NCBI RefSeq assembly: GCF_006345805.1
Contig: NC_043006.1
Span: 97,278,001 to 97,342,000, forward strand
From: Octopus sinensis
Taxonomy: Eukaryota
Direction of reading: 5' to 3'
DNA: 64,000 bases
Numbering within the stretch: the stretch's first letter is position 1; each line of letters begins with the position of its first letter. The notes under the pieces are model-generated. The model did no database searches, was not told where the DNA came from, and saw only the letters and a program-made list of their open reading frames with translations. A program made the translations under genes and the position numbers. Below are positions 1-32,655 of the stretch, piece by piece.

Positions 1-1
1 C

Positions 2-259
2 CATTCCCTATACATCGGACAAACGGGACGCTGCTTGGCTGACCGGTTCGTGGAACACCTCCGAAACATCCGCCTCGGCAATGACACTCCAGTCTCACGC
101 CATTTCCACTCCACTGGTCACTCTTTGCAACACCTGTCTGTGTTCGGATTGTCCTTGTACAGAGGCCATCTGGACTCCCGCTTGTGCCGTGAACAGGGAT
201 TAATCTTCTCTCTTCGCTCTTTTACACCATTTGTGCTCAACTCTTCCCTCCCTTTTCAT
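2..259 (+). mobile_element. Penelope-like element fragment, GIY-YIG endonuclease C-terminal half
   Basis: Frame from nt 2 reads HSLYIGQTGRCLADRFVEHLRNIR...VSRHF...REQGLIFSLRSFTPFVLN, matching the YIG-T-R...R..EH...HF...E...P..LN pattern of PLE GIY-YIG domains. Runs off the left edge. Confidence 0.8.
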
Positions 260-2560
260 CTAACCTCCTCGAGAAGCAAGTAGTTGTAGCCTGGCCAGGA
301 TAACGCGGGCAAAGGTCTTTCCAACAGTGCTTAGAAGGGATATACCACGGTAATTGTTACAATCACCACAGTCACCTTTGTTTTTGTAAAGCGTAATGAT
401 GTTAGCATCCCGCATATCCTGAGGGACTGTACCCTTTTCCCAGCACTGACACAGAAGTTCATGAAGGTGCCGAAGCAGGATGGTGTTTTTGCTGGCTTTG
501 ATGATCTCTGAGAGGATGCCGTCTTTTCCCGGGGCCTCATTTCTTGCTAGGGAGTCAACAGCCTTGGTGAGCTCTGCTATAGATGGCGGACTGTCAAGTT
601 CGCACATGACTGGCAAGATCTTGACACTCTCGACTGCAGCCTCAGCCACTGTAGTCTCCCGTGAGTAGAGATCCTGGTAGTGCTCCACCCATCTATCCAT
701 TTGCTTGCCTTGATCCCTAATGATATCTCCGGTAGTTGATTTCAGAGGGGCTGACTTGGTTGTGGATGGACCGAGGGCCTTCTTCAAACCGGCATACATC
801 CCATGGGTGTCGCCCCTGTCAGCAGCTGACTGGATACTCTGACAGATTTCCTGCCAATACCTATTTGCACAGCGTTTGGCTGTCAGTTGGGTTTTATTTC
901 GTGCCTTTCTGAGTTCTTCGAGTGACTTTGTAGAAGAGTCACTCTTGTATTGCATCAGAGCTGCACGCTTTGCTTCGATAACTGGCTCCAGCATTGAACC
1001 AATCTGGGTTTTGCCTTTCTCTCATGCCGAAAGTATCTATTGATGTCGTATACAAGGCTTCCCTGATATAGTCCCACCTACTTTCAGCAGAGGAGGTTGG
1101 GCAGCTACTGAGGGCAACCTTGATAGAAGCAGCAAAACATTTTCGCGGTGTAGGGTCTGAGGTTCTGGCAGTGTTGATGCGTGGTCGGCCCACTTTCTTG
1201 GAGCGATGGACTTTTTTAGGCCGAATCCTCACCCTACTTCTAATTAGTGAGTGGTCTGTGTCACAATCCGCGCTGTGGTAACTGCGGGTCAATAGAGTAG
1301 AATTCAGAAAGGATCTCCGTGTAATGATGAGATCCAGCTGATGCCAGTGGTGAGATCTTGGATGTCTCCAGGATGCCTTGTTGGTAAAGAATGTGTTTGT
1401 GATGCACAGGTTGTGGTATGTGCAGAATTCGAGTAGTCTCTGACCATTGTCATTCATGTTGCCAATACCAAAGTGTCCAACACAAATGGGCCACGAATCA
1501 TGGTCAGATCCCACGCGAGCGTTAAAATCCCCTAGAAGGTAGATATTTTCAGTTGTTGGTATATTTTCTATGACACAGTTGAGATCTTTGTAGAACTGGT
1601 CCTTGGTCTCCTCTGAGCTGTAGAGAGTGGGAGCATAGATGCTGAGTAGATGTACTGAGCCAGAAGAAGTCGAGAGGCGCAGTGAGAGGATACGCTCAGT
1701 GCCTCCTGATGGTGGTTCTATTGAGGAGAGTAGTGAGTTTCTCACTGCAAAGCCAACGCCATGTTGACGAGGTTCTTCTGGATCGCTTCCCTGCCAAAAG
1801 AAGGTGAAATCCTGCTCTTTGAGTTTGCCGTTTGAGGGAAGTGTTGTCTCCTGCAGCCCAGCAATATCTATGTTGAGCCGTTTTCCTTGTGTCTTCAATC
1901 CTGAGAAGATCATCAGATATTCCGGGACACATGGTCCTGACATTCCAGCTTGCCAACCGCAGAACTGGTGTATTCTTGACTTTTAGTTGCTTGCCTGGTG
2001 CAGAGGTTGCAGGCCGCTTTTCGAGCCATACTCTTAGCTCCAAGCACCTAAAGGAGCAGGCAGCCTGAGGCGGGTCAGCACCTTATTAACTGGGGGCTGC
2101 CCAGCTTGAGGTGGGCAGTAGCTAACCAATAGGACACGGAGGTCCCTCCCACCGTCAGAGGAAACCCATAGCGCCCATATTTTACGCCAATTTGAATGGA
2201 CTTATCACTCGTGACTGTTACCTCCCGTGTTGTTTCTGCAGCTTTTTACAGCAGCATTGAAGTGTCCTCTCCAGTTTTGCGCAGGCCTGGGCTATAGATA
2301 AGAAAGTCCTGGGTAGCCCAATCGTCAGGTTTCCTCTCTCGACCTTGCTGATGTAGTCCAGTGGAGTGCAGTGCATTACGTTTGGCACCAGCTTGGTTGC
2401 AGGAGCTGCCGGAAGAGTGTCGAGTCGAACACTAGACCGTTTCGGGGCTCCACTCCGGATTTCTTTGAAGGTTGTCTCCTTTCCGTAACCCTGGATAGGG
2501 GCCCATACCGGGTACTGCCAGCCGAGCCCGGAACTCGTGTCAGGCAGGGTCGTCACTCCC
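260..2560 (-). mobile_element. RTE-clade LINE: 5' UTR, APE and N-terminal RT; frameshifted and 3'-truncated
   Basis: LRLASWNVRTM (1696-2043 ORF); GLQET, IYAPT, LGDFNARVG, WRHPRSHHWHQLD, DCDTDH (939-1943); RWVEHY, APGKDGI, LYKNKGD, NYRGISLLS (260-994). 5' edge approximate. Confidence 0.9.
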
Positions 2561-2674
2561 TGAAGTAGTGAAGAAGTTCGCTACCCACTACCTTTTCAAG
2601 TAATGTTAAATTATTATTAGATTTTTCATTCTTTTGCCTACGTTTATTTTATGTTTATTCTCAACCACTAATAT

Positions 2675-2767
2675 TCATCATCAGCAGCAGCAGTTGTAGT
2701 AGCAGCAGCAATATCACTATCAGCAGTAGCAGAGGCGGTGGTAATAGTAGTTATGGCAGCAGCAGCA
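2675..2767. repeat. Degenerate (CAG/TAG)n trinucleotide tract
   Basis: Seen directly. Confidence 0.7.
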
Positions 2768-2949
2768 TTTTGCTTCGCTTCATTTCATAGGGACAAGGGA
2801 GGGAAGTTAAGAGAGGGTGGGAAGGGGAGAGAATAGAGAGATATCCGGTATTGGTGGTGGGTTTGGGCGGGCGCACAGCGAACAGGTCGGTCGGAATTAA
2901 GGGACGATGGTCAGAATTCATGCAGAGGGGGTAGAGGCGAGTAATTTAC

Positions 2950-4481
2950 TTAACAAAATTCTAAGAGATGGAGCTTAAAACTAACAGATAGATAAATAAA
3001 TAAAATATCCAACATGTCCAGAACCTGGAGACGTGACAAATTGGCATTGTTCGTAGGAGCCTGGAAATGCGCCGACGGAGATAATCCTAACAATACAATT
3101 AGAGCTGCGCTGAAGAGCAGTGGGACGCGGGTGCTGATGAAAGAAGTCACCCCCACCTGGTAGACACCCGGGAAGAAGATTCAAGTGAGAAACCTGCCGG
3201 GAAGTAAACCCAAGTGCAAGTGCTCCTACCAGCACCAAAAGCCATGGAGATGAAAAACCCAAAAAAGAAATAAAAGGAGGAAAAACTAAAAGAAAAACTC
3301 AAACAAAACCAAAAAATGAAACAGCCAAGGATAGAAGCAAAACTGACTATCCATATACCAAAAAGGATGGAAACAGACAGTGCACATGGGTGTGTAGGTT
3401 CTACCTGAGAGGTACCTGCTGGCATGGAGAGGAAGGTGCAGGCTGCCGTTTTGCACATCAGGGACCCTGCCGCAGAGACACGAAACAGGTCAGAAACCAA
3501 CTACCAAAAGGAAAAGGGATGGACCACGCACCACCTGCCCCAAAACGGAGGTACACAGATGTGGTGCGTGCCACAAACCACCAACATGTTGTTGAAAAGG
3601 CAGCTGCTGAACAAGAATCTTTTTTGTGCAGCTAACCTGGCTTCATCAAACCCAAGCTCTCAGATGGGACTATCCACAATATACAAGACCACCACAGCAA
3701 ATAGACCCAAGGTGGACACCGCCGGCAACAGCATACACCTCACCTCGATGCTCCTACTGAACATCAGAGGACTGCTAACACTCAGTAACAGGACAAAAAT
3801 ATCGTTCTTGAGAGACTTTGTTGCATGCAATCAAGCCTTATGCATAGCATTTACGGAAATGCACCTGAAACCGGATATAGCAGATGCGGAGTTACACATA
3901 CCACAGTATGCTGTACTACGGACCAACAGGAAAGAAAGGAGTCATGGAGGTGTTGCTATGTACATCCGTGAGGACCTCACACCCCAGGTCCTCTTGTCAT
4001 ACTCAAACACTAATTGTACATATTAGGCAACTTGATGTAGTTGTGTGTGCTACATATCGCCCTCCAGATGCCCCAAGCCATGTGGGCAAGTTTGAAGACT
4101 GCCTTATAAAAATAGAAGTTCTAACCACATTAGAACAACACATAAGTGTACTTCTTATGGGAGACTTCAATCTGCCCAATGTCAGATGGCCCGAGGGCCT
4201 TTCTCTCCCAGGAATGACACAATGTGAACTACGACAGGCGGGTCCCTCCTGAACCTCATCAATACCCTGTACATGGAACAAGTAATACTCCAACCAACCA
4301 GGGCAGGTAACATACTGGATCTCTGCTTCACAAATAATATGGATCTCATCCATAATATGAAAGTGACACCGACACTACTCTCGGATCACAACATTGTAGA
4401 GCTGACCATGTACGGGCCAAATGAAAGCATAGACATGCAGCCTACAAGAAACTCTCAGAATCTTTCCAGCTTGAACTTGTC
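2950..4481 (+). mobile_element. CR1-group LINE 5' part: ORF1 remnant (Myb-like start, CCCH finger) and degenerate APE
   Basis: ATG at 3014 gives MSRTWRRDKLALFVGAWKCADGDNPNN; CRFYLRGTCWHGEEGAGCRFAH at ~3393; LLLNIRGL, FTEMHL, GGVAMY, YRPP, MGDFNLP, PTRAGNILDL, SDHN spread over three frames. Confidence 0.85.
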
Positions 4482-5120
4482 ATTAGAATTTGCAGATGTT
4501 TCTGCCTTTGCCCTTACAGTTCTTGCTGGGGTTCTTCTGTCTTTTCTGAACAGTGTTAGTTTTAGTTTTAGTTTTCTTGTCTTTTACCTTGTTTCCCATG
4601 AATTTTAGGGTGCTTTCCTTTTTTTGCGGCCATCTGGTCTTCAGTTGTGTTGGGAGCTGGACACGTGCCATTGTTTCCCTGTTTTCTAGGTTTCTCGGTT
4701 TTATTTTTTGTTGGGTCCTGGATGTTTTCTTCATCCTTTTGGCCTTCCCTGGTGCAGTCACCTCCTAGGATGATGTCCACAGTGTCCATGTGTTGCCTGA
4801 TTAGAGCGTATGAATGGAGAAATTCTCGTTTCTTTCGCTCTATCTGGGCGGTGGTCCTCGAAAAATCATTGCTCTTTAGCACCGCTGCAATAATATTGTT
4901 TGGCGAGTCGCCCTCGGCAATCTTCCAGGCGCGGACGAACAATTGCAACTCCCTCGCAGACCAGTTCCTTGACATTTTTGCCCGAGATACAGTGAGAGTG
5001 AAATATAGGAACAGAGAGAAGGAAAGATAAGATGGTTGACCTGAGAGGGAGAGGAGAAAGGAGAAAAGCTGGTGGCAGATCAGCCAGGGGGGGGGGGGTA
5101 GAGAGAGAGAGAGATGAGGG
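4482..5120 (-). mobile_element. CR1-group LINE 5' end (ORF1 N-terminus), related to the 2950-4481 element
   Basis: ORF 4568-4975 begins MSRNWSARELQLFVRAWKIAEGDSPNNIIAAVLKS, 22/35 identical by eye to the peptide at 3014. Confidence 0.7.
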
Positions 5121-5124
5121 GATT

Positions 5125-8022
5125 GATGTAGCGCTCACGGCGACGTTGGAGAGAATAAAGTTTTAGCTTTTCTAGTCAACCCCAATAGTCGAGGCCTGTC
5201 ATGCCATCTATCTTTTTGGTGATTGCCCTTTGAGGTGCTTCAACTTTTATGATACTTTGTATTGTGTGGGGAGACCACAGTGGACAACAGTATTCAAGGT
5301 GGGGTTGGGCAAAAGTGGAGAAGAGAAGGATAATGGTGTGGATATCTCTCGACTGGAAAGTTCTGAGAATCCAGGAACACATTCTGCGGGCCATGTCAAC
5401 TTTGGTGTTTATATGAGTGGCCCAGCTTATGTTGTTGTCCACAATTACTCCCAAGTCTCTGATGTTGTTGGATGCCTCGAGATTTTCACCTGAAGGAAGG
5501 GAGTATGGGAGTTTCAGGGCATCCTCTTTTCCAAAGTGGATTAACTCAAATTTATCCTCGTTCAGCAGCATATTGTTCTTTTCTGCCCATTGGATAACAG
5601 CCTGTAGATCTGACTGAAGGCATGTCCGGTCACTCGCCTCATTTATGACCTTCTGGAGCTTGGAATCATCTGCAGAGATTTTTATGTTGCTGTGCTTGAT
5701 GATGTCATTAATGTCATTAATGTAGATGATGAAAAGAAGTGAGCCCAGCACAGTGCCTTGCAGAACGCCACTACTGACTTTGGCTGGGCTTGATTTTACT
5801 CCTTCAACTACATGTTGAGATCTGTCTGTCAGGAAACACTTGATCCATTTCAGTAACTTTCCAGCGACACCAATGTTGGATAGTTTTTTCAATAGGATCT
5901 TGTGATCAACCCTGTCGAAGGCCTTGCTGAAATCAAGGTAGATGACATCGGTGTTGGAGCCCTCTCCCAAAGCTCGCAAAATGTCATCAAAGTGATGCAG
6001 GAGCTGCGTTAGGCAGTCCCTTCCATTACGGAACCCATGTTGGTTAGAGATCAGCCATCTGTTGCTTTCCAGAAATTGAGTTATTCGAGATCTCACCACC
6101 CTCTCAAATACCTTGATGATATGAGAGGTGAGTGAGATCGGACGGTAGTTCACTGCAAGGGACTTGTTTCCCTTTTTGAAAACTGGGACAGAAAGTTTTT
6201 AGGAATATAGCCAGCATCCAGTGAGTTTCTCCACAGATTAGCAAGGGGAGATGCAAGTTGGTGTCGACACACCTTCAGGACACAAGCAGGGAACCTATCG
6301 GGGCCTACTGCTGAATTTTGTTTTATTTCGTTTATTGCCACTAGGACATCAGGGGCACCAAACGTTATGTCCGATATAGTGTGTTGGGGGTTGACATCAC
6401 TGATACAGCCCAGATCGGCCATATCAGGATTGCTGAAAACAGAGCAGTATTGTTTCTGGATTTGACATTATCTTGGAGAGTGCCATTTTCATCAATTAGA
6501 GGGCCAACAGTGGAGACAGTGACCCTGTTTCCTTGCAAATGAAAAGAACACTTTGGGGTTGAGTTTGATTTTTTTCAATAGCCCACTTCTCCTCAACTGA
6601 TCTTTGGTTATTGTTGAGGGTTTTCATGCATTGTTGGAGGTTATATTTTTTGGATTCAAGCAGTGCGATAGCCGTGGAATGTGTGTTGCTGCTGTTGGCA
6701 GTATTTTAGTTTGTTAATTTTTTTGTTTGTTCTTTTTATTTTTCTGATAATAGTTTTTCTGTTTTGGGGGATTCTGCACTTTTTGTTCACAGGTCTTTGT
6801 GGGGAGTGTTTTGCACATATGTTTGTGACGGTGTCTACAAAGATCTGCCAAGATGTTTTATGGTTGGTGGAGATGTGTGTATGTGTAAAGGACCAGTCAA
6901 CATGTGATAGCTTGTTCCTGATTGCATCCCAGTTGGCATTATGGAGATCCATGTTATCAAATGGGTGGGCTGGAGAGAGGTCACTAGGATTAGCTTTCGG
7001 CTGGTGGAATTTCATGTTACAGAGAACTATGTCATGGTCTGAAAGAAGGGTTTTTTCTACTGTAATGTTATGTATAGTGTTAGTGTGGTTACTAAACACT
7101 CAGTCCAAAATGTTCTTCTGATATCTTGTTGGTGCAAGGACAAGTTGGGACAAAAAAAAACTCATTCATAAAGTCGAAAAGTGACTCTGCTGCTTCTTTG
7201 TCAGCGGTTGAGGCGGGAGTGCTTGGTTTCAAACAGTTTGTAGTCCAGTCAACACAGGGTAGATTAAAGTCTCCCATCATGAGTAGGTTGCTAGAATGGC
7301 ACTGTTGAATAAAGCACTTAATGCTGTTGAGGCATTCTTTGGCCTTGGCCGGTAGTGCATCTAGTGCCAGGTAGATGTGTGAAGATGCAGTCACTACCTG
7401 TGCAGAGCCTCTGAATAATGGCATATTTTGGGGTTTCTTGTTTGTGCCGTGGGGGGCGCATTCTGCTTCATATGTTTTTTTAGGTTTTTGTTACTGCAGT
7501 AGTATTGAGGTGGCGATGTGGGGGAAGAGAGCTGTGGTTTCTTATTTGGTTTTTTATTAGTAGTATTTTTGGTGATAGAAGATGATGGTGGCAGCGGTGG
7601 TGATGATGATGATGATAATTGTGGTGGTTGCTGTGAGAGCTGTGAATAGATACTGGCATTCAGTAAATCATCTAGTATGCTAGAGTTTAGGAGTGGCTGT
7701 TGTTCTTGTTGTTGTTAGGCTTGAACAGTGAAAATATAAAGAAGTTTTTCAAAATGGCTTTTAGTTAGTTTGAAAGAGACTTTGATATGCTTCAGTTTGC
7801 TACGAATTTGTTTGACGGATCGTGTGTTGACTATTTGCGATGTTTTTACGGCAATCTCATTCAAACATAAAGCATTTCAATTTTCTGTTTGGGAAAGTGA
7901 GAACCAAGTGTTAATTAAGACATCAATTTCATAATCAGACCAATTTCGTCTGTTGCAGGCCTGCAGGTTAGTCGTCATGTTTGTTTTTCTTTTGATTTTA
8001 GATATATATATATATATATATA
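5125..8022 (-). mobile_element. CR1-group LINE, decayed (ORF1 start, APE, RT), with internal deletions
   Basis: RT ORF 5176-6153: NYRPISLTS, QHGFR, YLDFSKAFDRVDH, SGVLQGTVLG, SADDSKL, LEYCCPLWSP. APE MGDFNLP and LSDHD at 6656-7424. Myb-like ORF1 start at ~7978. Confidence 0.9.
7734..8022. repeat. ~290-bp direct repeat, copy 1
   Basis: Near-identical to 9084-9372 (offset 1350), with 2 substitutions seen outside the (TA)n tract. Confidence 0.95.
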
Positions 8023-8039
8023 TTCTTTCTTGTGAGTTA

Positions 8040-8717
8040 AAGAAGTGTATATATAGAGAATACCAAACGAGTTCCCTATGGATACTGTATTTATTACAAC
8101 TCTATAACTCTTTCATCTATATACAAAGAAAAAAAATCAAAAGGACTCATTGTTATCGCATCATTATCCAGATGTACTCCTGTTTCTGCTTCGAAAGGGA
8201 AGCGCGAAGGGGGCGGAGCCATATCATCTCCTAATCTAAGTCGGTGCCAGTCTCTTGCATCTACCTCAACCTCATCTTCAGTTTCTTCACTTGAATAAAA
8301 CTCTTCTGACGAACTTTCACTCTCATCAGATGTATCCAACCCTCCAAGAGAAGCTTCATAATCGCTATCATCATCAGAGCTCGACATGGTGGGGTTATAA
8401 TATAAAGGTATAAAAAAAAACAAAGTGAATACTTCTATTCATGAAATGTGCCTTCCAACCCTTCGACTGTCTCCAGGTGACTAAATCATACTCGGTCTTC
8501 AATGCCTTACTCAAGCGAAAGGTGGCAGAAATCGTCACTGCCAGACGTATAAAGTGAGCGAATATACTCGTATATGTCAAAAAAGAGTTTGTAATAGACG
8601 AAGGAACTCGTTTGCTGTCGATTTTGGCGAGTCTATCTTTTGATGAGTTAACTCGCCAGAGATAGAAAAAATCGATTTCAGTCAAAACACATATATTCGT
8701 TTCTGCCGGGTAAGGGG
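8040..8717 (-). mobile_element. piggyBac 5' end with transposase N-terminus
   Basis: TTAA (8718-8721) followed on the minus strand by CCCCTTACCCGGCAG; acidic N-terminus, then PPPSRFPF...GV...SPFDFFSLYIDERVIEL, typical of PGBD4-like transposases. Confidence 0.75.
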
Positions 8718-8721
8718 TTAA

Positions 8722-9985
8722 CCCAATAACTAAATTCTTCACATCGTGGCACGCATGAATACAGCTTGATTTCACGTCAGTGACGTCACAATGTGTAACT
8801 GTAAAAGATGTCATGCCGCAGGAAGATAGTCCGACTTTATAGCGCTAAGTTTTCAGCTGAAATGACTGATAACTGATGACCGTCCGAGAATAGTGACGTC
8901 GAGTAGTGTTTTGACTTCAGATATCTTTCAATACTGGATAACATTCCCCTCAAAGATGAAGGTTCAGAGTTGCTACCGTCCGGCTTTTTTTTATTTTTGA
9001 TAAAGATTGTTTTTATTTTGATTACCTTGAACGAATTTGTCTATTCCAGAATGATCATACCTTGGTTGAAATTCAAGTTCATTATATAAAGAAGTTTTTC
9101 AAAATGGCTTTTAGTTAGTTTGAAAGAGACTTTGATATGCTTCAGTTTGCTACGAATTTGTTTGACGGATCGTGTGTTGACTATTTGCGATGTTTTTACG
9201 GCAATCTCATTCAAACATAAAGCATTTCAATTTTCTGTTTGGGAAAGTGAGAACCATGTGTTAATTAAGACATCAATTTCATAATCAGACCAATTTCGTC
9301 TGTTGCAGGCCTGCAGGTTAGTCGTCATGTTTGTTTTCCTTTTGATTTTAGATATATATATATATATATATATATACATCAAAGAAATCGTCACGTAGAA
9401 GTTCGTTGTACACCTCGTCAGGGATTTTAGATCTAGGGTTCGATGACAATCCACTTGTCGATGACACTGTTTCAGGTACCTTTAACCTATATCCAGCAAC
9501 ATGTCGAACTTGGCCAGTATTGATCTTCACTTTGAACATTCTGTATGTTCCAAGAGGTTGAACAACGGATAACACTCTTCCCCCATCTTTACCATCAATC
9601 TTAACAAAATCATTCACCTTGATATCGACAACAGTAGCCATCTTGTTGATAGATCTACCTGCACTGCAAGAGTATCGACGAGCAGACGAAATATGTTGTG
9701 ATTTTTTTTGGCAACAAAAAATTGAATTACCACCAGAAATGTTTATATTTTATGTGTATATGACTTCATGTGATATCTGGTATAAAAAAGATAGTATGTT
9801 TGTTTAATTACATGGCTACATTCTACCTGCTCGTGAAAGTAATGAATGAAGTTTAGTTGTAACTTATGAATGACAAAAGTAGTGCCGTCACCGTGACCTC
9901 GAGTCATCACCATGGATTGACCAATCAGAAGCAGCGCTCGCAGTATCTGACATATGTTAGATACCAAAAATATCTCAAAATGTTC
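8722..9985 (-). mobile_element. Crypton-like (DUF3504/KIAA1958-type tyrosine-recombinase transposon) remnant
   Basis: Minus strand 9003-8880 reads FIKNKKKPDGSNSEPSSLRGMLSSIERYLKSKHY (the K.DG..YEPSSL..M.S.I.RYL signature), preceded by IDKFVQGNQNKN. N-terminal ORF 9348-9641. Edges approximate. Confidence 0.65.
9084..9376. repeat. ~290-bp direct repeat, copy 2 (duplicate of the LINE ORF1 start)
   Basis: Matches 7734-8022 and shares the in-frame TGA after ...SQTEN. Confidence 0.95.
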
Positions 9986-10085
9986 TCACTCACATGTGTG
10001 TAATAAACATATATACATATACATATATACACATACATACATATATACACATATATACATATATACACATATATACATATATATG

Positions 10086-10320: not shown

Positions 10321-10324
10321 GGAG

Positions 10325-21655: not shown

Positions 21656-22666
21656 TATTACTACTATTTTCAGAGGACTGGCACTTACAGTCCAACGACT
21701 ACCAAAATTTATACCCTCTCTTTTAAGAAATTCTAAGATAGGCGTAGCCAGTGCTTTTAGTTTTGCAAGAGCCAGTCTACAAGGAAGTTAAAAGCCTTTC
21801 TATTAGTTTCCCAGAATGAACATAACATATGTAACAGTGGTAGATGAAGATGACTCCAGGAAAGGACAGTGGCCAAAGTTGTGAGGACCAAATTTTATTC
21901 TCGGTTTTTATTTTTTTGTTGGGGGGATGCCAAACCACGGCTGGTAGGCATACATATAAACAAAAAGCAAGTTGTTTTTGTGTAGTAGGGTTTCTGCTTG
22001 GTTTCGGTTTGTCTGCTAGATATCAGTGTGAGATAGAATGAATGTATGAGGCTGGGAATTCATAAAGTTGAAAGGGTCAAGCTTATATAGACCCTGTTGT
22101 TCTCAACAGTGGCTGATAGTGAAGATGCTAGTCAGCCAGTGAGAGAGCAGTAGAGAGTGACTGATGGGGAGGCTGTATTCGGTGCTGCCAAGCTGTATGT
22201 TGCGTTTGATTGTGGTGGTCACAAACACTTCAGTGTGGCAGCTGAGGCTCTCTCTCTAACTTTCTGTTTGCCGAGCACTGGTATTTTTAACGGTTCATTT
22301 CAGCTAGAAAGATGGATATATCATTTATAAGAGTAGCTTATACACATTTAGGTCGTTTGTTGTCCATTTTAATTTCCCCTGATACTGCAAGGTCACGGGC
22401 GAAGTGGAGACACGTCAATCACTGTATCTTTTGACAGGACAAAGCGATTTTCCTGCTTGGTCAGCAAGTGGAAATTCTTAGATTCAATTTTGAATCCCAA
22501 CCCGGCAGGGCCAAGTGAGGTCCTTACACACGTAATTGTTAGGAGTTCAGTCTGGTGTTGAATCGACAGAAATAGAGAAATACTTTGTAGTTTTAAGTTC
22601 TGCTACAATATGATTCTTAACACATTTTGCCATGTGCAGAACAATTTCTTCATAGATGGTTGATGA

Positions 22667-24775
22667 CAGTGGCGTGCGGTGACTTCAGGGGTTGGGCATG
22701 CAATGAATTTCTTTTCTTTGCCCCACCCCCACCCCCGCGGCAATTTTTCAGTAAAAAAATTTTCATATCCCTACAATTTACATATGGGAGATTCTGAATA
22801 TGCAACTCCCGTATGACCTAGAATAAAAAAAAAAACGTCGCCCTGGTACTATTTAAGAAGAGTGGTCCTGTTGCCCATGATTTTTAAATTGCTTGCAATA
22901 CTCATCAAATTTGTTGAAATTTGAAAGTTCCATGAATTTACATTCTTCTGAGAATGAATATCGTATTTTTATTTAGTTAACTATTGTACTGATGATTTTG
23001 TTATAAAGCATTTTATAATGTCGTTGGGGCTCAACAGATATATTCTTGGATCTATGAATTCCGATTCCTGCATCGACTCCATATTTTTTCCCTAACATAT
23101 AAAAGATTGAAAAATTATCAAGTTTGTTTTCGAGTACAGTTCTAGTTTATTCTATCTGCTCTTTACAATACACTATGTCATGACTTTTACTCTGGAGGAT
23201 GTTAAATAAGACGTCAGTAAAAGAAAAAATCTCACTGAATACTTCTAACAACAATAAGAAATCAGGAGCTTTTAAAGTGTGTAAGAATCCAATTGCTGAA
23301 TTTATGGTGGTATCATCCCATGCTTCAGGATTTTCAATGATGTGCTCAAAAAGGCTGATTATGAAATGATAATTTTCCTTTGTGGTAATAATGAGCCGTG
23401 AGGAGTAATTCCATTGCTGTTGCCTTCGGAAATCTTTTTTTTAACAATGCTATCTAATGCATTAGCCCTTTTCGGTGATTTCGTAAAAAATGTACTCAGT
23501 CTGTTTATTGTACAAAAAAATATCTTGCATTCTTTCATAGCAGAGCATGATTGTGAAAGAACTAAATTTAGGATATGGGCACAACAATGAATAAAGATCG
23601 CGCATTCATATTTCTTTCTTACTTTTGCCTGTAACCCATTTAGTTGTCCTGCCATTGTAGCGGCACCATCATGTCTGTGCAATCAATTTGTTTCCACATT
23701 CCCACATCTCAATGCGTTTAAAAACATGTTCAGATAAAGCATTTGCAGATCGATCTGCACTAACATCACTAAAACTGATAAATCGTTCTTTCGTCACACA
23801 GTCTTCTGTAACATAACGTAAAACTGTTGACAGTTGTGAATATGCTGAGGCATCTGATGTCTCATCAACAAAAATAGAAACAAACTTAGCTTGCTCGATT
23901 TCCTTTTGCATCTCATTCAACATAACTTTATGAATTGCATCGATCAAGTCATTTTGAATTCTGTTCGACAGACCGGTGAAGATAGAAGCTGTATCTAGAT
24001 GGCTTTCCATTTTTTGTCATATTTACTGATTACATATACAAGTTCTTTATAATTTCCACTATTATTAGAGCCTTCAGATTCAAAATGACCCCGAAACGAT
24101 AATTCCTGGAAGCCTAAAAAAATAACAACATCAATCAATCGTTGCAGAATGGATCTGTTTCGCCTGACTTTCTCATTATGATGTTGTATGCTTTGATTTT
24201 TACATGCATCTAATTGTAAGTCTATGTGAACATTCTCGAATATTTTAAGATCTATCAAAGATTTTATATTGCCTTTGAGAACGCTTGTGCTTTAACATAG
24301 CCATATGTAAATTATTTAATTCATCATAGCCTTGTGGGTATCATGCGGTCATCTCAAAGCATGACATGCCACTGAGAGAGAGAGGAAGGAGGGACAAACT
24401 AACAAAGAGACAGAGAGGGAAGTCATGCGGGTCTTCTCAAAGCATGACGAGCCACTAAGAGAGAGAGGAAGGGGGTAAAAATATTTCAAATGCCCTTATC
24501 CTCTTAGCATGTCTTTTAAACAAGTCACTAAGAGAGAGGCAGGACAAACTGAGACAGAGGGAGTGTCTGTCATGCGGGTTTTCTCAAAGCATGACTTCTC
24601 AAAGCAGAAGTACGAGTCACTGAGAGAGGAGAAGGGGAGACAATATATTTCCAAAACAACTGGACGGATTTTCTTTGAAACAAAGTAACTATTTTATCTA
24701 ATTTTCCGATGATATGGATAAAAAATCACAGGGCATGCAACACATACCTTGCATACCTGAGAGTGCACGCCCCTG
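22667..24775 (-). mobile_element. hAT transposon (Tip100-like), internally deleted
   Basis: TIRs CAGTGGCGTGC / CAGGGGCGTGC; perfect 8-bp TSD GTTGATGA (22659-22666, 24776-24783); LSFRGH, VDETSD, DGAATM, HCCAH in three frameshifted ORFs. Confidence 0.93.
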
Positions 24776-25494
24776 GTTGATGATGAACATGATTGTTTAC
24801 CACTTCTGAAATTGCAAAATGGTTTCTAGTGACACATCATAAAGGGGCCAAATTGTGCAGTAAGGTCCCAAACTCCTTAAAACATTCCTAATGTGCTTAG
24901 ATCCTATGATCGCTTGATGCCAGGCCTCTCTTAGCTATAAATATTGTCACAGTCCTTGGCATTGCACAGTAACTTCTATATAGTATTTTTTGTTTTTCCT
25001 TCTTGTTTTTCCAACTTCCTGTAATCACTGAATTCAGTTGTCTCAACTTTGGCCAGTATTTTCTTTAAACTCAGCCAATGCTGGATGATAGTATCCATCT
25101 GGTACATCATTGTCCTTACCATCACCTCCAACTACTTAACCATTGATATCTTTTCAAGGGAATTGTTCTTTGATTCTGACTTAGACCATGGTTTTGAAGA
25201 TTTCTTCCAGGAAGCCATCAACAAATGCAGGTGCATTTTTTTGTCTCGGAAAAGTTCATAAAACTACGATCAATTTTTGAAATTGTGTATTCGTGGAAAG
25301 CGAATAACTACGAAATGGCATCCGACGACTGAAATTTAGTCTCCTCCGGAATTGAAAGTAGGCTGTCTCCAGCTTAAACTACTGGAAATATCTTTGCTAA
25401 GTATTTATGTGCACACCTCTCAAGGTTACACAACGCACCTGTAGCCACAAGAGAAAACTCAATCAGTGACTAATTGTGACTGCAGTGCGCTAAA

Positions 25495-25660
25495 GGTTTG
25501 TCTTGGCTTTGCTTAATTGAGGAAAGATGTCTTTAAGCAACTTGACTGGCTGCCCCTAAAGTCTGTTGATTTCACAAAATCTTTGAAGATTCCAAGTTTA
25601 ATGTATAATGGTGGTAACGCAAATCAAGTGGAACTAGTTGTTGTTTAATGATATTCATCT
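25495..25660 (-). mobile_element. Chapaev3-like (CMC superfamily) transposase fragment
   Basis: LPPLYIKLGIFKDFVKS...IFPQLSKAK resembles the PPLHIKLG.MK.FVKA...FP.LS.AK motif. Family name from recall. Confidence 0.55.
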
Positions 25661-26654
25661 AGGAGTGGTTAAGCTGACCTCTGTTGAGTTCATTGCGGTG
25701 TGAGGTCATAGAAGTTTCAAGAGATAATAAGAGTCTGTGAAAACAGTTCCTGTCTGTATTCATAAGCCACCATACATAATCAGTGGCAGGTCATCCTTGT
25801 GCTATGCCTTCTTACCGTACGATACCCATAGACACGATCCAATGCCATCAGGAAACCACTGCATTCTGAAACATCTTATGCCTCTTGGAATTCTCCATTT
25901 TTCCTTCAGTTAGCTAGGTTGCAGTCCTAGCACTGCCAGGGTTAGACCTGTCTGCTTTGGGTGGCCCCTCCATGGACTCAGTCCTGGACAGCATAGCTCT
26001 AACATTCACTGGTTTAACCTTCCCACCAAAAGTGGAACTAGTGGTAAGTATGGAATACGGTTATTCCTTGGTCTCATGACCAACTGACCAATCCTGCTGA
26101 CCAGTGCCTATTTCCTACAGGCACAAGAAGTAGCAAAACTTCATGTAGCCATTTCACATTCTAGTTCAAAAAAGTCACCTGTCTTTTCACTTGATATCAT
26201 CATACCTGTTCAAGGAAAGTCACATCTTGATAGTGTTGTAGGAGTCTTTTGGCTTCCTTTGTCTTTTTCTCATCATTCTGTCTTTAGTTGTCAGGTTTGT
26301 GATAACTTAGTTAAGTTTCGGCCAATATAGCCCCAGGCAATGTCTAACGTAACAGCACCACTTGGTGAAGTCTTTTAGATCGTGATTCACGTCTCAGTCA
26401 TATATGAGATCTCTCCTCTCCAACATTGCTGTGAGTGCTACACCATTTGTGTGATCTGGAAAATATTTCATTAATATCACGCAAATGATGCTGGCATCAA
26501 TTTTAAAATCCACCCAAGACTTGGCCCCCCCCCCATGCTATCTGCCCACTACAAAAATTGAACTCAAGACAACTTTACAACACAGCTACTTTATCTCAAC
26601 TGGTCCAGCTTTCTTTAATAGCAAAATACATCAAAATGGAAACAGATCTTTTTA

Positions 26655-27990
26655 GGTGACCCCCGTAATCAATGCCTGTTATGCCATCTATTTTTATGTC
26701 ATCTTTTTTATTGACCTCTGGAGTTCTTCCACTTTCATAATGCTTTGCTTCATGCAGGGAGACCACAGTGGGCAACAGTATTCAAAGTGGGGTTGGGCAA
26801 AAGTAGAGTAGAGAAGGATGATGGTGCGAGCATCTCTGACAGGAGCACATCTTGTGAGCCAAGTCTACCTTGCTGTTTCTGTGGGAACTCTAGCTTAGAT
26901 TGTTATCAACAATTATTCCAAGGTCTCTGGTGTTGTTGGATGACACTAGGAAGTTGCCCGAGGGAAGGGCGTATGATAGATTCAGAGTATCCTCATTTCC
27001 AAAGTCGATCAAATTAAACTTATCTTCATTTAGAAGAATATTGTTCTTTTCTGCCCATTGGACAATGGCAAACAGATCCGACTGGAGGCATTTTCAGTCT
27101 CCCATACCATTTATGGCCTTCTGGAGCTTGGAATCATCTGCAAAGATTTTCAATGTAGAATGTTTGATGACGTCTACTATATCATTGATGTAGATAATGA
27201 AAAGGAGTGGGCCTACTGTGGTACCTTGTGGGACATCACTATTGACTTTGGCTGAGCTTGATCAGATTCCCTCAACCACAACATATTGGGTTCTGTTCGT
27301 CAGGAAACACTTTATGCATTGCAGCAGTTTTCCACAAACTTTCATGTTAGACAGTTTCTTCAGCAGGATTTTATGGTCCACTCTGTCAAATGCCTTGCTG
27401 AAATCAAGGTGTATGACATCAGTGTTGGAGCCTTCACCCAAAGCTTTTAAGATGTCAACAAAATGGTGCAGAAGCTGCAACAAGCATTCCCTACCATCAC
27501 GGAAACCATGCTGGCTGGGGTTCAAGCAGATTGTTGTCTTCGAGGAAGTGGGTTTTTCGCGATCTCACCACCCTCTCAAATACTTGAATGATATGAGAGA
27601 TGAGTGAAATCAGACGGTAGTTCACTGCAAGAGATTCGTTTCCCTTTTTTGAAAACTGAAACGACAGACTGGGAAAGGAAATGATCAGGAATATAGCCTG
27701 TGTCAAGTGAGTTCTTCCTGAGCTCAGAGGGCTTGCTATTTAATGTTGACATATCTTCAGGATAGGGGCTGGGAACCCATCGGGACCTACTGCCGAGTTG
27801 TGCTTGATCTTATTTATTTCTATTAGGATATCAGGAGCACCAAAAGTTATGTCAGATATAGTTAGTTGAGGGTTTATATCACTGATACCAGCTGGATCGA
27901 CCACATTCGGGTTACTGAAAATAGAGCAGTATTGTTTCTACAGTAGCTCGCACAGTGAGTTATGAATGTTATTCCATTCATGTTTTCCAT
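26655..27990 (-). mobile_element. CR1-group LINE RT fragment, closely related to 5125-8022
   Basis: NYRLISLISHIIQVFERVVR, QHGFRDGR, HLDFSKAFDRVDH; DNA visibly alignable to 5180-6460. Confidence 0.9.
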
Positions 27991-28307
27991 TGGTCTATTT
28001 AGTACTATGTGTATGGCCTCCATAATCTGAGTGTCATGCCTGTTCTATGTGTTGATAGTATCTTGACATCTGTGTTATTAATTGAGCAGGCAGAAAGGCA
28101 TACACACACATTACCGCAGAAAGGCGAAGGGGAACTTGGATGTTGTAACGGTTGCTGGAAAATTTTTGGGGCTGTTGCAAAAGTCCCATCCATAAACCAT
28201 GGTATTGTAGGTTAAATGTTAAAGTGCCTGCTTAGTTGCGAATATTACAATTCTCTCTGTCAATTCAGGTCCATTGTCATAAATGAGGAAATCCTGATAC
28301 TCTAGAG

Positions 28308-30654
28308 CAGTGTTTCCCAACCTTTTTTCCCGGCGCCCCACTTTTTCATAGCAAAAGTTTTTACGCCCCACCTTTTCCCATGTCCACTCACATTTACAAG
28401 TACATGTGGGCCTACTTACAATTGAAAAAAAATCAAAAATTAAAAAATTGTATTCAAAATACAAAAAAATAGTTTGAGAATTGAAACAACAGGCACTGAA
28501 AGTGCATAACACCCAATAAATCGATAAAATTATTACGATTTCTCATGTTTTTAAAAAATGTCAATTTATAAAGAATAAAGAAACACGTTTTTTCAGTTCA
28601 ATTATTTGACGGTCAGCTCGACTAATTTAGTGAGAACCCTGTGCCTGATGCATACAGCACAAGTTTTTAATTTGAGGAGACAACTTTGTTAATTTCAGTC
28701 GTAAATCGCCACGTTTTGTAATCTCAAGCCGGTTTCTCTTGGCTTCGAGCAAATTATCAACTGCACTAAAACCACATTCGACCAAATAAGACGAAGGGAA
28801 AGGAATCAGTAGCTCTCTTGCTGATGTAGAAATTTTAGGATATTTTCTTTCAACCTCGTCATATAGCCACATCTTTGTACCTTTCAATTTAAACAAAGTC
28901 TTCACTGATTCATCATGTTGTAATTCTGATAACTCTTCTTGGTATTGGATTGTAGCATCAGAAACGTTAATCAGAAGCGGTTGAGTTAACCAAGAACGAA
29001 AATTCATTGCCTTTAAATCGCAAAATCTGTCATTGAAATCCTTTATCAAGATATTTAAATGATCAATAATTACAATGCCAGCATCATTCGTTATTTCACA
29101 TTTACTCAACCAGTAAAGTTCACTGAAATTTCTTTTGGAAAATTTCTTTTCCATAATTCGAGAGCTGTAATAAATCCAAAAATCTTTGCTTTTGCATCAA
29201 TAAGTGTCATGTTTGCACCTTGAAGTTGTTTATTCAAGTTTCCAAGTTTCTCAAATATGTCTGTCAAATAACTGACAAATGCTTTTCCATCCGTTGTTGA
29301 CAGCAATTTCATTTCACATTTATCACTAAGAAAGTCGTTAATCTGATCAAATAATTCCATGAACCTCTTTAAGCAGTTTCCACTTGATAGCCATCTTACT
29401 TCTGTATGAAGCAATAATCGAACATGTTCGGCACTTTGATTTATACAAAACTGCTTAAAAAGACGTTCAGATTTAGAATTTCTTTTAATGCTGTTGACAC
29501 ACTTGATCACACTTTGAAGAATCTTGTTAAGAACAGGGGACAATTTCTTGGCAACCAAGTTTTCTCGGTGTATTACACAATGGACAGTCAACATGTTTGG
29601 ATTTTCATCCTTCATCATTTTTAAGCATCCCGTATTCTTGCCCATCATGGCAGGTGCACCGTCTGCCGCACATGCCAGTAAGTTTTCCTTTGGTATTTTG
29701 TTTGCATCCAAATAATGTTTGATTTTGATGTAAATATCATTTGCAGTTGTGGTGGTTTCAAACGATTCGCAGAACAGCATCTCTTCCTGAAACTCCTCGT
29801 GGTCAATATACCTCACATAAGTCAATAACAGAGCCTCACTGTCCTGGATTGTGGATTCATCCATTTGTAATGAAAACTTACGCAATTTTAATTTCTCAAT
29901 GAGCTGGCTTTCAACATTTTGCCCCATTTCATCTATTCTGTTCGAGACAGTGTTATTACTGAGTGGCATAGTCCTGATATCTCCATCATCTTTTTGTAAT
30001 ACAGTTTTTAAGAATATTGAGATAGCAGGTTTAATCAGTTGCTCTCCAATAGTGTGATTCTTTCCATGTTTTGCTATAAGCAAGGAGATTTCGTAGCTGG
30101 CTTCAAGGGCACGAGTATGAGGTGCTTGTTTTGCATGAAATAGTGAAGTGAGTTTTGTTCAGTTTTTAAATTTTTCTTTCAATGATTTGAAGTATTCCAA
30201 ATCTAAATTAGAATTATTAGGATGTCTTACCTTTAAGTGCGCTTCCAGCCTACCTGCCTTCATTGACTCATTGCTCATCGTCTGATTACATAATAAGCAA
30301 AACGGTTTACGCTCATCATGCTCATCAGGAATGAATCCAAACTTCAAAAACTCCACCGCGTATTGACGAGTCTTCTTCTTGTTTGGTTTGCTCATTTTCA
30401 ATAGGGCTAACAAAAGATATTAAAATTGAAAGGTACAGTATTGAAAGTCTCGGGAGATGACACAAATCCAAGAAAGCGGGATCTTCTTTGTCTCGCTGGG
30501 GTGCGAGAGTGTCCGATGTGGAGGCTTCAAAGGAAAGACGGAATCTAAGGTTGTGCCCGCGATGACCGCTCGTCATGTACAAATATTTTCACAGCCCACG
30601 TCTATGCCCCGCGCCCCACCTGAATTTTCTCAGGCCCCACCTTGGGAATCACTG
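28308..30654 (-). mobile_element. Full-length Buster/Charlie-type hAT transposon (2347 bp)
   Basis: TIRs CAGTGTTTCCCAA / CAGTGATTCCCAA; perfect TSD CTCTAGAG with central TA (28300-28307, 30655-30662). Confidence 0.95.
28627..30395 (-). pseudogene. Buster-type transposase (~590 codons), one nonsense codon and one frameshift
   Basis: BED finger CLLC...HLKVRH; MDEST, ADGAPAM, CVIH, RWLS, ECGFS. The TGA at 30159-30161 is in frame with ORF 29106-30083; frameshift near 29150. Confidence 0.92.
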
Positions 30655-31149
30655 CTCTAGAGATCTGTAGTTTTCCATTCACCACTAATTTGCTCCAGTT
30701 CTCATCGGTATTTTAGACTTTGGCAGTGCTCCTTTTTGTAGACGTCAAACATTACTCTTTGAAGGGTCATTTCTAAAAATGGCGTTGTTAACATATGGCA
30801 CCTACAATAATATTTACAGATCTGACAAAGCAACTGTTTTTATGGTGTTCTTTACTCTGGCTGTCTTAAACTTGTTAGAATCTGGGGTCAGAGTTCAAAA
30901 AGAGAAAAAATGTAATTGAGGGGCTTTTCTCCTATTTCACACTTTAACTTAGAGAGATTTGTCTAGATCCTGTTAATACCAGCTGGGGGTGGTTTTTGTT
31001 CTCCCCCTCTCCAGTGTGACATATCTGACATGTAACCTTCCAGTAGAGAATGCACAATTCTCAGCTTGATCTTTTTGGCATTGACTCTATGAAAAATTAA
31101 TGAATCATAGTTGCCATGACAATAAATATTTTCAATTTCTGCTGTGAGG

Positions 31150-31471
31150 ACAGTGGCTTAAAATTCATGCACTAAATATGCATAACTCTAAATGCTCCTG
31201 ACTTTATTATAAATTTTCTCAAATAACGAATGTGGTATTTATCATCAGCGTGCAAAACTATATCAAAAGTGCATTTTTTGAAAACTTTCAGATTAAAATT
31301 TGTGGTTGAAAGAAAAGGGGAAAAAAATACAAAATATCCTTGTGTATCAAAATGTTGACGTGATGGAGCAAAACTAACTTCATATTCAGAAAGCGCACCC
31401 TAAAATTAGCTAAAATCACCCTAATTATCTATTGATAAAGAACTTTTTTTTTGTTGTCATTCCTGCTAGTG
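31150..31471. mobile_element. Possible non-autonomous Chapaev-like terminal fragment
   Basis: CGTGATGGAGCAAAACTAACTTCATATTC...CACCCTAAAATTAG...AGTG resembles recalled Chapaev3 subterminal sequence; not verified. Confidence 0.3.
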
Positions 31472-32169
31472 ATGAAAGTTCATGTCTGTCCAAGAACAGT
31501 TTGCTGAAATTTATTTAAAAAAATTTTTTTTTTAAGTGAAATGAATTTTATTAGAACATTTTAAATAAGTCTGACAACTCTTTGCTTTCACTAACACTTT
31601 ATGTGGAGTGGAGCAGTGACAAAAAGGGTCTTCAGCATATCTGAAATGTGAAGGAAAAGATGAAGGATAATGAAACAGATAATGTATGTTGAATGTAATG
31701 TAATAAATGATAATAATGTGTGTTGTAATCCTCTATGCCCTCCTTGAATCTTTGGAGGGAAGCAAACGAAGACTGATATGTAGTAAATGGTTAAAGAAAA
31801 TGGGATAATTAATGTGAGAGACAGTTAATTAATATTGATTCTTTGTTGCCGGAATAGTGATTATGGAAGGCTGTCTGAATTTGATGTATTGTTGTATAAA
31901 AGGCATGAGCCCACGTATCTTGTCAGTATCACCTTTGCTGTTGTTCAAAGCTTGTTTGTCTGTATAATGATTTGAGCAAGTTGTATCCTATTCAAGACAA
32001 CCAAGCTGAACACTTTCAAGACTACGTTGTTCAGTTCTATTCTTCTTATAGCTGCTGCCTGCAACTTCTCATTTCTATTTCTTTTCTCGAGTATTTTAGT
32101 CATTGCTCGAAGTTTCCAACCTTCAGATGTTTTTTTTCTTTTTTTTTTTCAAACTTTCTCATGAGAAAG

Positions 32170-32655
32170 CCTCAATAATACTTTAGCAGTCACCTGCTTA
32201 TGTTTTTCTTTTTGCATTTCTCCTGCAATTCCATTCTTCAGTTGCTCAATGGCTTTTACTATTCCTTCAACAGATATTTCATTTTACCATCACTTCCGGC
32301 ACCTCCTGTGGTTCAGAAATTATCAGTGCATTTTCATCCAAACCCAGTCTTTTTGATCTCCTTGCCTGTAATCTCATTTATTATTGCATAAGCTATTCTA
32401 ATTCCTCTACAGCCTCTTACATAGAGTAATTTATCACTTGCATCAGTTTTCACTTCAAGAATTTTCTTTTATCTCTTCTTGAACACCTTTTCACCTCTGT
32501 GTTGAGACTCCCATAATTAGCTATTTCCCCTTTAAGGTCCAGCTTTTTCTCTTCCTAACTTTCAGTAATTGGTTTTTGTTCTTTTCATGTCTCAGTAACT
32601 TTCCATGATTCATCCAAAATCTATTTCCTTCTTTTTATCTCATTCTTGCACCATG
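32170..32655 (-). mobile_element. Old RTE-like LINE fragment (APE-RT linker)
   Basis: LNTEVKRCSRRDKRKFL, AYAIINEITGK and EISVEGIVKAIEQLKNG in broken frames. Confidence 0.55.

Follow-up and report, generated by a model that had tools for sequence, protein, structure and literature searches.

Transposon fragments, densely packed and nested, form together with one captured virus gene a block of about 44 kb in the Octopus sinensis genome, between about -9 kb and 35 kb in the coordinates of the window (the whole 64,000-nucleotide stretch of contig NC_043006.1 that was analysed), and most of its fragments lie on the minus strand, including a parvoviral NS1 EVE (Table 1). We consider the block to be probably a uni-strand, EVE-bearing candidate piRNA source locus, similar to the core clusters of Aedes and not Gypsy-rich like flamenco. 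In this view a long transcript, probably plus-strand, would contain the fragments in antisense and be processed into piRNAs; silencing by these is predicted for matching transposons and possibly for the virus, and selection would keep the antisense insertions. The elements are about 80% to 100% identical to dispersed copies, so uptake is ongoing and targets exist in trans. PIWI genes and piRNAs are reported from octopus in the cited parts of two studies (PMC6128900, PMC12479628), and small-RNA data from the arm tip of O. bimaculoides are available (PMC12479628).

Table 1. Features of the strand-biased block, in window coordinates
Feature	Position	Strand	Evidence or remark
Strand-biased transposon/EVE block	1..35100	.	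Microsatellite- and SINE-poor; continues ~9 kb left of window
Penelope-like element 3' end, start ~1.7 kb left of window	1..259	+	270 bits in tblastn against other copies; labelled by eye and from a library match
RTE-like LINE, endonuclease to RT start	263..2100	-	Pfam Exo_endo_phos; family copies 91-97% identical
CR1-like LINE 5' part (SANT-like, CCCH, endonuclease)	2950..4481	+	Pfam Exo_endo_phos_2, weak
5' piece (SANT-like ORF), CR1-like family of 2950..4481	4486..5134	-	86% to C16 copy, 45% to L002 copy
CR1-like LINE	5125..7700	-	Pfam RVT_1 2.8e-27; family copies 93-97% identical
Possible piggyBac-like 5' piece nested in Crypton-like element	8097..8700	-	By eye; Atlas lead 0.87 only, for 8097-8438
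Crypton-like fragment (label presumed)	8710..9720	-	211 bits (tblastn) to ORFs with a relative that carries Pfam QRICH1
Penelope-like fragment	10084..10323	-	tblastn E 1.7e-14
RTE-like LINE	10372..12925	-	Pfam RVT_1; family copies 85-95% identical
CR1-like LINE ORF2 part, EVE host	12927..15714	-	Pfam RVT_1, Exo_endo_phos_2; copies 84-89% identical
Target-site duplication 67 bp, downstream copy	15648..15714	-	Inside host CR1
EVE poly(A) signal and A11 tail	15715..15740	-	Signal 15740-15735, tail 15725-15715
Parvoviral NS1 EVE	15715..17325	-	Pfam Parvo_NS1 2.6e-14
Target-site duplication 67 bp, upstream copy, 1 mismatch	17326..17392	-	
Host CR1 ORF1 part (CCCH-type)	17326..18240	-	Sequence comparison with CR1 copies
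Gypsy-like gag/protease fragment, LTR-like repeat	18411..19780	-	Pfam zf-CCHC 7.6e-5, gag-asp_proteas 0.008
Old hAT-like element (weak), probably interrupted by mariner	19790..22684	-	tblastn 33%, E 0.002; rest by eye
Mariner transposase fragment	20623..21501	-	Pfam HTH_48, Transposase_1
hAT element	22874..24775	-	Pfam DUF4371; copies 92-96% identical
Low-copy DNA, earlier labelled 'Chapaev-like'	24780..26400	.	No Pfam hit, no transposon-library match
CR1 3' fragment	26418..26619	+	tblastn E 2e-10
CR1-like LINE fragment	26640..27950	-	Pfam RVT_1; copies 78-85% identical
Possible MULE remnant	27901..28300	-	Motif only, which we take to be MULE
Very young hAT, FAM200/GTF2IRD2-like transposase	28301..30663	-	Atlas 0.94; best copies 99-100% identical
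Possible old LINE RT remnant	31812..32634	-	By eye; no Pfam hit
Zinc-knuckle gag-like ORF, rightmost biased element	34138..35070	-	Pfam zf-CCHC 4.7e-5

The tool-backed elements in positions 1-32655 number 14 on the minus strand versus 3 on the plus strand (binomial p=0.013). The minus group consists of two RTE-like and three CR1-like LINEs, the 5' piece of a fourth CR1-like element, a PLE, the Crypton-like, Gypsy-like and mariner fragments, three hAT elements (one weak) and NS1, and the exceptions are the PLE at the left edge, the CR1 5' part and the CR1 3' fragment. Dropping the weak hAT changes the p-value to 0.021, and leaving out NS1 together with the CR1-like 5' piece of the same family gives 0.035; with four by-eye elements added it is 0.0015, while a stricter automated count of the window alone, with self matches dropped and neighbours merged, gives 9 versus 3 (p=0.15). 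The initial annotation, which had counted 18 of 20 elements on minus (p of 4e-4) with only 2-259 and 2950-4481 on plus, was thus right about the strong minus majority and about both exceptions, but the bias is slightly weaker than it stated and 26418-26619 is a third plus element. Its tightly packed, nested multi-superfamily layout with NS1 was confirmed, and most of its family labels are tool-backed, except for piggyBac-like, MULE, a third RTE-like and 'Chapaev-like'. The limits of 1-32 kb enclose a dense region but fall short of the block, which extends about 9 kb to the left, where piggyBac, PLE and Helitron pieces lie on minus, and to 35 kb on the right; the flank past the right end of the window was covered by a transposon-library scan only. 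The idea that the plus CR1 5' part is an internal segment of a minus element, turned around by inversion, was rejected, since it has a 5' SANT-like part of its own. Pfam assigned no transposon family to 114 short window ORFs, and Rfam gave no match in the window and 30 kb to its left.

The proposed comparison with genome-wide windows was carried out, and comparable skew was found neither in the flanks of the block nor in 15 seeded random windows (38 plus and 40 minus elements; 103 same-strand versus 120 opposite pairs). The block elements can be treated as independent because only one duplication of local origin, 290 bp long with 99% identity, lies in the block. Coding fragments occupy 15,270 bases per 40 kb compared with a control median of 3,017, measured with a library that favours the families of EVE sites.

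The stronger evidence for a trap layout is provided by the other NS1 sites of the genome, not by the window's own count. All eight other chromosomal sites used were picked solely for NS1-like copies, and the transposon pieces within 20 kb were scored: with local copies collapsed, 60 lie on the same strand as the virus copy versus 9 on the opposite one, and DNA transposons alone give 28 versus 2. This bias holds even against the majority strand of the controls chosen post hoc (50/27; Fisher 0.002). EVEs gathered and co-oriented with transposons are thus found in the window block and at six of the eight sites; the two sites with no bias are C5 (3/4) and the sparse C1 (2/1), and two of the six, C19 (4/0) and C29 (5/0), are not significant alone. 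At C27, C16, C14 and C12 several NS1 pieces occur per site, all in one direction. Microsatellite bases at all nine NS1 sites are below those of all 15 controls.

It could be argued that the skew reflects preferences of the inserting elements, or local duplication, in a transposon graveyard that tolerates insertions, with no selection on orientation. Local duplications do inflate the raw counts at C16, C12, C19 and C29, and the direction of replication can skew both LINE insertion and substitutions, as stated in part of PMC10030826. However, the bias persists after local copies are collapsed and in DNA transposons, the window block has only one small duplication, and the coding strand agrees across unrelated superfamilies, which would point to selection on RNA. 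We therefore find this explanation improbable.

The NS1 copy bears the marks of retroposition from a viral mRNA, with a poly(A) signal, an A11 tail and a 67-bp target duplication inside CR1, and the duplicated segment is single in five of five uninterrupted CR1 copies. The duplication is longer than the 7-20 bp usual for L1. The EVE is 5'-truncated by about 38 codons, is broken between its nuclease and helicase parts, and aligns to residues 39-530 of 547 of P0002. Its NS1-type SF3 helicase domain scores 53.3 bits with Pfam Parvo_NS1 against a cut-off of 20, and PPV_E1_C scores 48.9 on the same stretch. None of the 27 NS1 relatives found is a named virus. Among 13 other NS1 pieces examined, three are followed by a poly(A) signal and an A-run, with unrelated sequence after each run, and none has a target-site duplication. 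CR1 ORF1 runs in frame into the 5' part of NS1 (16834-18138), a join treated as chance, of about 1 in 3.

Methylation in octopus is described in part of PMC9476566 as a feature of gene bodies, not of transposons. Among the 10-12 members of their families, the seven window copies rank 2nd to 5th in CpG decay (combined p=0.008), and the decay ratio of the block is 4.5, compared with 2.0 and 1.3 for the nearest flanks that could be measured. This suggests germline transcription of the block, although it would fit any transcribed unit. At the other NS1 sites the decay was seen in 7 of 8 versus 6 of 15 controls (p=0.07, not significant). In block copies G>T exceeds C>A on the plus strand by 21:4 (21:6 by a second method), compared with 105:100 in other copies, which hints at transcription of the plus strand under a rule that derives from human data and lacks calibration in octopus. 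Nominal p<0.05 was reached by 2 of 15 controls, a similar lean is seen in the right flank (13:5), and six other biased sites display no asymmetry (G>T:C>A 12:16, A>G:T>C 16:23).

A reading in which the locus, piRNA-producing or otherwise transcribed, is transcribed along the minus strand and hence in the sense of the elements, or along both strands, receives some encouragement from this uncalibrated rule, from site C14, which leans the opposite way (3:10), and from two sense-oriented EVE exceptions in Aedes albopictus mentioned in part of 10.1101/2022.08.22.504762. We give it little credence, as the plus-strand G>T excess in the block was obtained by two methods and a minus transcript would cross the EVE's own poly(A) signal.

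Contigs of three presumed-RNA runs, which like the rest of the 24 runs listed are not recorded as RNA and have no silent-stretch control, cover the low-copy parts of the block in pieces of up to 4.1 kb, and no splice-type ends occur among the 15 joints listed of 104. Four runs from the same species, with 0.01-0.04 of the words, were left out of the evidence. Several further signs were discarded. The contigs do not count as bridging the EVE junctions, as they reach 30 letters across, one short of the rule; the rightward rise in depth in runs X5 and X7, with X1 showing no trend, does not place a 3' end on the right because contig depth cannot rank parts; and the excess of poly(A) signals on minus (37 vs 21 in 0-33 kb) is confounded by the A-rich sense strands of transposons.

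The same traces bear on an intron or long non-coding transcript on the plus strand that makes no piRNAs and in which insertions in sense orientation were eliminated, as poly(A) and splice signals within them shorten the transcript. CpG decay and G>T asymmetry would fit it, repeat orientation bias in transcribed regions is well known according to the cited part of PMC10030826, octopus exons are short enough for ORF scans to miss them, and next to the C1 NS1 site, on the other strand, lie exons of a gene for an AMP-binding enzyme. Nevertheless, six controls with gene-body-like CpG decay are unbiased (47 same versus 52 opposite pairs), so an ordinary-intron background is disfavoured as the source of the bias, and the decay drops to either side of the block. 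No host Pfam domain was detected in the ORF scan of 35-63 kb or, at low sensitivity, in the left 50 kb, where 145 ORFs of 55-99 aa were scanned and a 100-N gap lies at about -15 kb; neither an upstream gene nor a promoter emerged there, which counts against the piRNA source locus too. Purging alone would also leave the crowding of coding fragments and the repeated same-site virus captures unexplained, and we regard this reading as unlikely.

A wider reading of the candidate piRNA source locus, which we put forward tentatively and consider possible rather than probable, is that the octopus has at least seven candidate uni-strand piRNA loci that repeatedly captured parvovirus mRNAs by means of LINE reverse transcriptase and keep them in antisense orientation as a heritable antiviral memory. 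Such loci would be recognisable from sequence by co-oriented elements of multiple classes and few microsatellites. If true, an Aedes-like system directed at a DNA virus would exist in a lophotrochozoan. The octopus NS1 sites bear on whether EVE-based piRNA memory extends outside arthropods, for which earlier work on marine invertebrates saw small RNAs but not the loci. As exact coordinates, strands and low-copy stretches are now available for small-RNA mapping, the question is directly testable. The block corresponds to C10:97,269,000-97,313,100, with low-copy parts at 16.0-17.3, 22.0-22.7, 24.8-26.4 and 30.7-32.7 kb of the window, and the six other biased sites lie at C16:40.70-40.75, C27:15.925-15.94, C12:57.47-57.55, C14:52.35-52.38, C19:42.57-42.60 and C29:13.01-13.06 Mb. 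The co-oriented loci suggest how the octopus may restrain its mostly unmethylated transposons, and NS1 EVEs may serve as markers by which they can be located without small-RNA data. For a psyllid, however, part of PMC7527727 describes that targeting of the virus did not require the piRNAs of densovirus EVEs.

The EVE shares a single transcript, poly(A) tail and flanking duplication with LINE-retroposed viral mRNAs, which in the cited part of PMC2987831 come from RNA viruses in mammals and were not seen in insects, whereas here a DNA-virus gene was captured in a mollusc. Parvovirus-derived host sequence also occurs as parvo/denso-like EVEs in starfish and anemone, for which antisense transcripts with 1U piRNAs are reported; the available portion of that study (PMC6085071) gives small RNAs without genomic context, while in octopus the context is known from sequence alone. 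The parvovirus-derived IHHNV EVE clusters of shrimp consist of scrambled fragments that, unlike those in octopus, are not described as co-oriented in the cited part of PMC9357335. The piRNA clusters of snail and oyster resemble the block in being transposon-enriched, with a make-up unlike that of the genome and enrichment of DNA transposons such as hAT, but they measure 2.7-17 kb in one study compared with about 44 kb, and the portions cited report neither one-strand orientation nor virus captures (PMC6128900, PMC11067994). The label 'flamenco-like' given in the initial annotation fits the layout, as flamenco and flam-like unistrand clusters likewise have dense one-strand fragments and can be recognised from sequence. 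It does not fit the content, since flam-like loci are defined by Gypsy-family elements in the cited part of PMC11400887, whereas Gypsy-like pieces make up 1 of the 17 tool-backed elements of the block, which consists mostly of LINEs and DNA transposons. The EVE-rich core clusters of Aedes are the closer analogue. They are of the read-through type, whereas no upstream gene was found at the octopus block, a locus known so far from its DNA, and the octopus EVEs are parvovirus-like, one with LINE-type retroposition marks, in a molluscan host. What the octopus sites share with them, as far as the cited part of 10.1101/2022.08.22.504762 describes, is the concentration of EVEs at a few loci in one orientation, the one-directional layout and the proposed role as a trap.

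Among the tool-backed elements in 1-32655 of the window, 14 lie on the minus strand and 3 on the plus strand (p=0.013). The initial annotation, which proposed a flamenco-like piRNA cluster, had counted 18 of 20 on the minus strand (p of about 4e-4); the majority is real but weaker, and one plus element, a CR1 3' fragment, had been overlooked. Its piggyBac-like, MULE, third RTE-like and Chapaev-like labels are putative and fall outside the tool-backed set; adding four by-eye elements gives p=0.0015, and a stricter automated count with self matches removed gives 9 versus 3 (p=0.15). The limits had been drawn too narrowly: the block starts at about -9 kb, left of the window, where piggyBac, PLE and Helitron pieces lie on minus, and ends at about 35 kb. 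Pfam detected no transposon domains at 35-63 kb, and orientation is mixed in the wider flanks. Pfam was run on 300 of 303 selected stop-free ORFs (at least 58 aa left of 33.5 kb, at least 68 aa right of it) and, in a second scan, on 114 shorter window ORFs; the window occupies C10:97,278,001-97,342,000, and the genome holding it has 2.72 Gb. Penelope-like elements make up many exceptions to the bias, including all 4 opposite pieces at C12, one of the sites with another NS1 copy.

The parvoviral NS1 piece (EVE) shares 98-99% identity with the protein 'nonstructural [Octopus vulgaris]' and 87% with one from O. bimaculoides, on which grounds the host is assigned to Octopus. It aligns to residues 39-530 of a 547-residue relative and is broken between the nuclease and helicase parts. 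Its 3' end carries a poly(A) signal and A11, directly followed by a 67-bp duplicate, with 1 mismatch, of the CR1 sequence preceding the EVE, which is single in 5/5 uninterrupted CR1 copies. Signal, A-tail and flanking duplication are described for LINE-retroposed viral mRNA (PMC2987831), and judged by its sequence the EVE has this anatomy. Alternatively, the insertion may have arisen by template switching while the host CR1 was itself being reverse transcribed; NS1 would then not be independent of that CR1. With NS1 and the same-family CR1 5' piece removed, the count is 12 versus 3 (p=0.035). A poly(A) signal and A-run follow 3 of 13 other NS1 pieces, and none of the 13 has a detectable target duplication.

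Searching at the protein level located NS1-like matches at 8 further chromosomal sites. A site often carries several of them, which then all point one way. All 8 were compared with 15 seeded random 40-kb windows, counting transposon pieces at most 20 kb from an NS1 copy, with viral pieces excluded and local copies of at least 88% collapsed. The 282-ORF library was assembled from ORFs of the window, part of them with by-eye labels, and from those of the 300 longest among 685 representatives of all the genomic DNA analysed that Pfam confirmed; BLAST expansion completed it. Pooled, 60 pieces lie on the EVE strand versus 9 opposite (28 versus 2 for DNA transposons only); raw counts were higher, inflated by duplication. 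The controls hold 38 plus and 40 minus pieces, with 103 same-strand versus 120 opposite pairs, so the skew exceeds the genome background, a comparison that the initial annotation had proposed. Local duplication or insertion preference is an unlikely origin of the skew, since it outlasts the collapsing of local copies and is common to unrelated superfamilies. The layouts at C12, C14, C16, C19, C27, C29 and the window form a non-random feature repeated in the genome. Transposon-coding bases per 40 kb number 15,270 in the block, an upper figure because the library favours EVE-site families, versus a control median of 3,017. Microsatellite bases per 40 kb, measured independently of the library, are lower at all nine NS1 sites (12-1,255) than in all 15 controls (1,654-4,058).

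Coordinates of features, and transposon pieces around the other NS1 copies (L-numbers, pieces of genomic DNA)
Site	Position (strand)	Feature	EVE strand/opposite
Window	15715-17325 (-)	NS1 EVE within CR1-like LINE	
Window	16834-18138 (-)	435-codon open frame, CR1 ORF1 continuing in frame into NS1 5' part	
Window	26418-26619 (+)	CR1 3' fragment	
Window	1-259	Penelope-like exception to bias	
Window	28.3-30.7 kb	hAT, 99-100% identity to dispersed copies	
Window	7734-8023 / 9084-9373	Direct duplication, 290 bp, 99%, around piggyBac-like and Crypton-like pieces; short SANT-like frame	
Window	54690-55788	Degenerate TG-rich microsatellite, 1.1 kb, in ordinary DNA of right half	
Window	62089-63100	260-bp repeat, four in tandem, in ordinary DNA of right half	
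C27			9/1
C16			12/1
C14			13/1
C12			12/1
C19			4/0
C29			5/0
C5			3/4
C1			2/1
C12	57.54 Mb, L058:252-1817 (-)	522-codon ORF, parvoviral VP1-type phospholipase A2-like domain (Pfam 7.3e-13)	
C12	L057:9319-9999 (-)	NS1 piece directly downstream of the VP1-type ORF	
C14, C29	L045:5312-6409, L046:4153-4644, L077:3176-3913 (all -)	Ankyrin-repeat ORFs, co-oriented with the transposons	
C29	13.024-13.038 Mb (L077-L078)	About 47 tandem units of about 293 bp, 97% identity, matching NS1 library; beyond them, Merlin/gag-like tandem units	
C1	139.93-139.94 Mb, L067:5523-6221, L069:562-1002 (+)	Exon-like AMP-binding enzyme ORFs	

The C16, C14, C29 and C27 sites carry many transposase pieces of the Merlin (IS1595-like) type (L034-L038, L043-L046, L077-L080); the same scan records such pieces in 0/15 random windows. 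The ankyrin-repeat ORFs are possibly captured host or element cargo. At C1, where the DNA is poor in microsatellites, the AMP-binding ORFs precede an NS1 piece on the minus strand by about 5 kb; this may be an instance of read-through.

Three presumed-RNA runs, each from a different study, have contigs in 28-29 of 30 bins across 15.4-35.3 kb, and low-copy stretches are covered by pieces as long as 4.1 kb; splice-type ends are absent at the 15 listed of 104 contig joints. As a sign of transcription this cover is weak. CpG decay of 7 window copies ranks 2nd to 5th among 10-12 family members (combined p=0.008). The decay ratio is 4.5 in the block versus 2.0 at -40 to -15 kb and 1.3 at 35-64 kb, the flank ratios coming largely from other repeat types and -15 to -9 kb holding zero usable sites; two windows further left give 3.3 and 4.4. 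Since octopus methylation is reported on gene bodies and not transposons (PMC9476566), the decay points to the block as a putative transcribed unit. In the repeats of the 15 random windows (L081-L140) decay is two-peaked: 9 windows fall at 1.1-1.9 and 6 at 3.1-5.3, a split by which methylated gene bodies might be recognised without any data beyond the sequence.

Private substitutions on the plus strand show G>T:C>A of 21:4, against which the other copies have 105:100 (Fisher 0.002, this pair being one of six that were compared). A>G:T>C is 40:26 (binomial 0.11); a second method gives 21:6 and 44:37. By the human rule that template-strand repair unbalances G>T (PMC10030826), plus would be the sense strand of the transcript. 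We hold it improbable that the locus is read sense to its elements or on both strands. The asymmetry was not reproduced at six other biased sites (G>T:C>A 12:16, A>G:T>C 16:23), is nominally significant in 2 of 15 controls and leans the same way in the right flank; replication can also produce such a pattern. An ordinary intron purged of sense insertions, with no piRNA role, likewise predicts both CpG decay and asymmetry. We nevertheless consider an intron unlikely: the 6 controls with gene-body-like decay are unbiased in orientation (47 versus 52 pairs), decay falls either side of the block, and purging leaves the crowding and repeated virus capture unexplained. In the 50 kb to the left, 145 short ORFs yielded no host domain, in a test of low sensitivity.

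We favour, with somewhat better than even confidence, a putative uni-strand EVE-bearing piRNA source locus; piRNA clusters are a class defined by small RNAs. In such a candidate locus, fragments of many transposon classes and NS1 would serve as the piRNA source. The families of the block elements have copies elsewhere in the genome; RTE, CR1 and hAT elements are 90-97% identical to dispersed copies and the lowest class 78-89%. The block has acquired its elements over a long period.

An antiviral memory in EVE-bearing loci is a tentative reading, and such a role should not be assumed, since EVE piRNAs of this kind are reported as dispensable against virus in a psyllid (PMC7527727). Parvo-like EVEs of starfish and anemone yield antisense 1U piRNAs, reported without their genomic loci (PMC6085071). 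The putative locus would belong to an established type, in a lineage for which, within partial literature coverage, no title or abstract on octopus piRNA clusters or on cephalopod or octopus parvoviral EVEs describes these loci; O. bimaculoides piRNAs (PMC12479628) and mollusc parvovirus-related sequences (PMC5013282) are reported, and their supplementary data may bear on novelty. Snail and oyster piRNA clusters are described as enriched in DNA transposons (PMC6128900, PMC11067994). The flamenco likeness first proposed holds for layout, but the block fails the Gypsy criterion as given in PMC11400887. We likened the block to Aedes core clusters, where EVEs are reported to be gathered antisense in unidirectional loci (10.1101/2022.08.22.504762).
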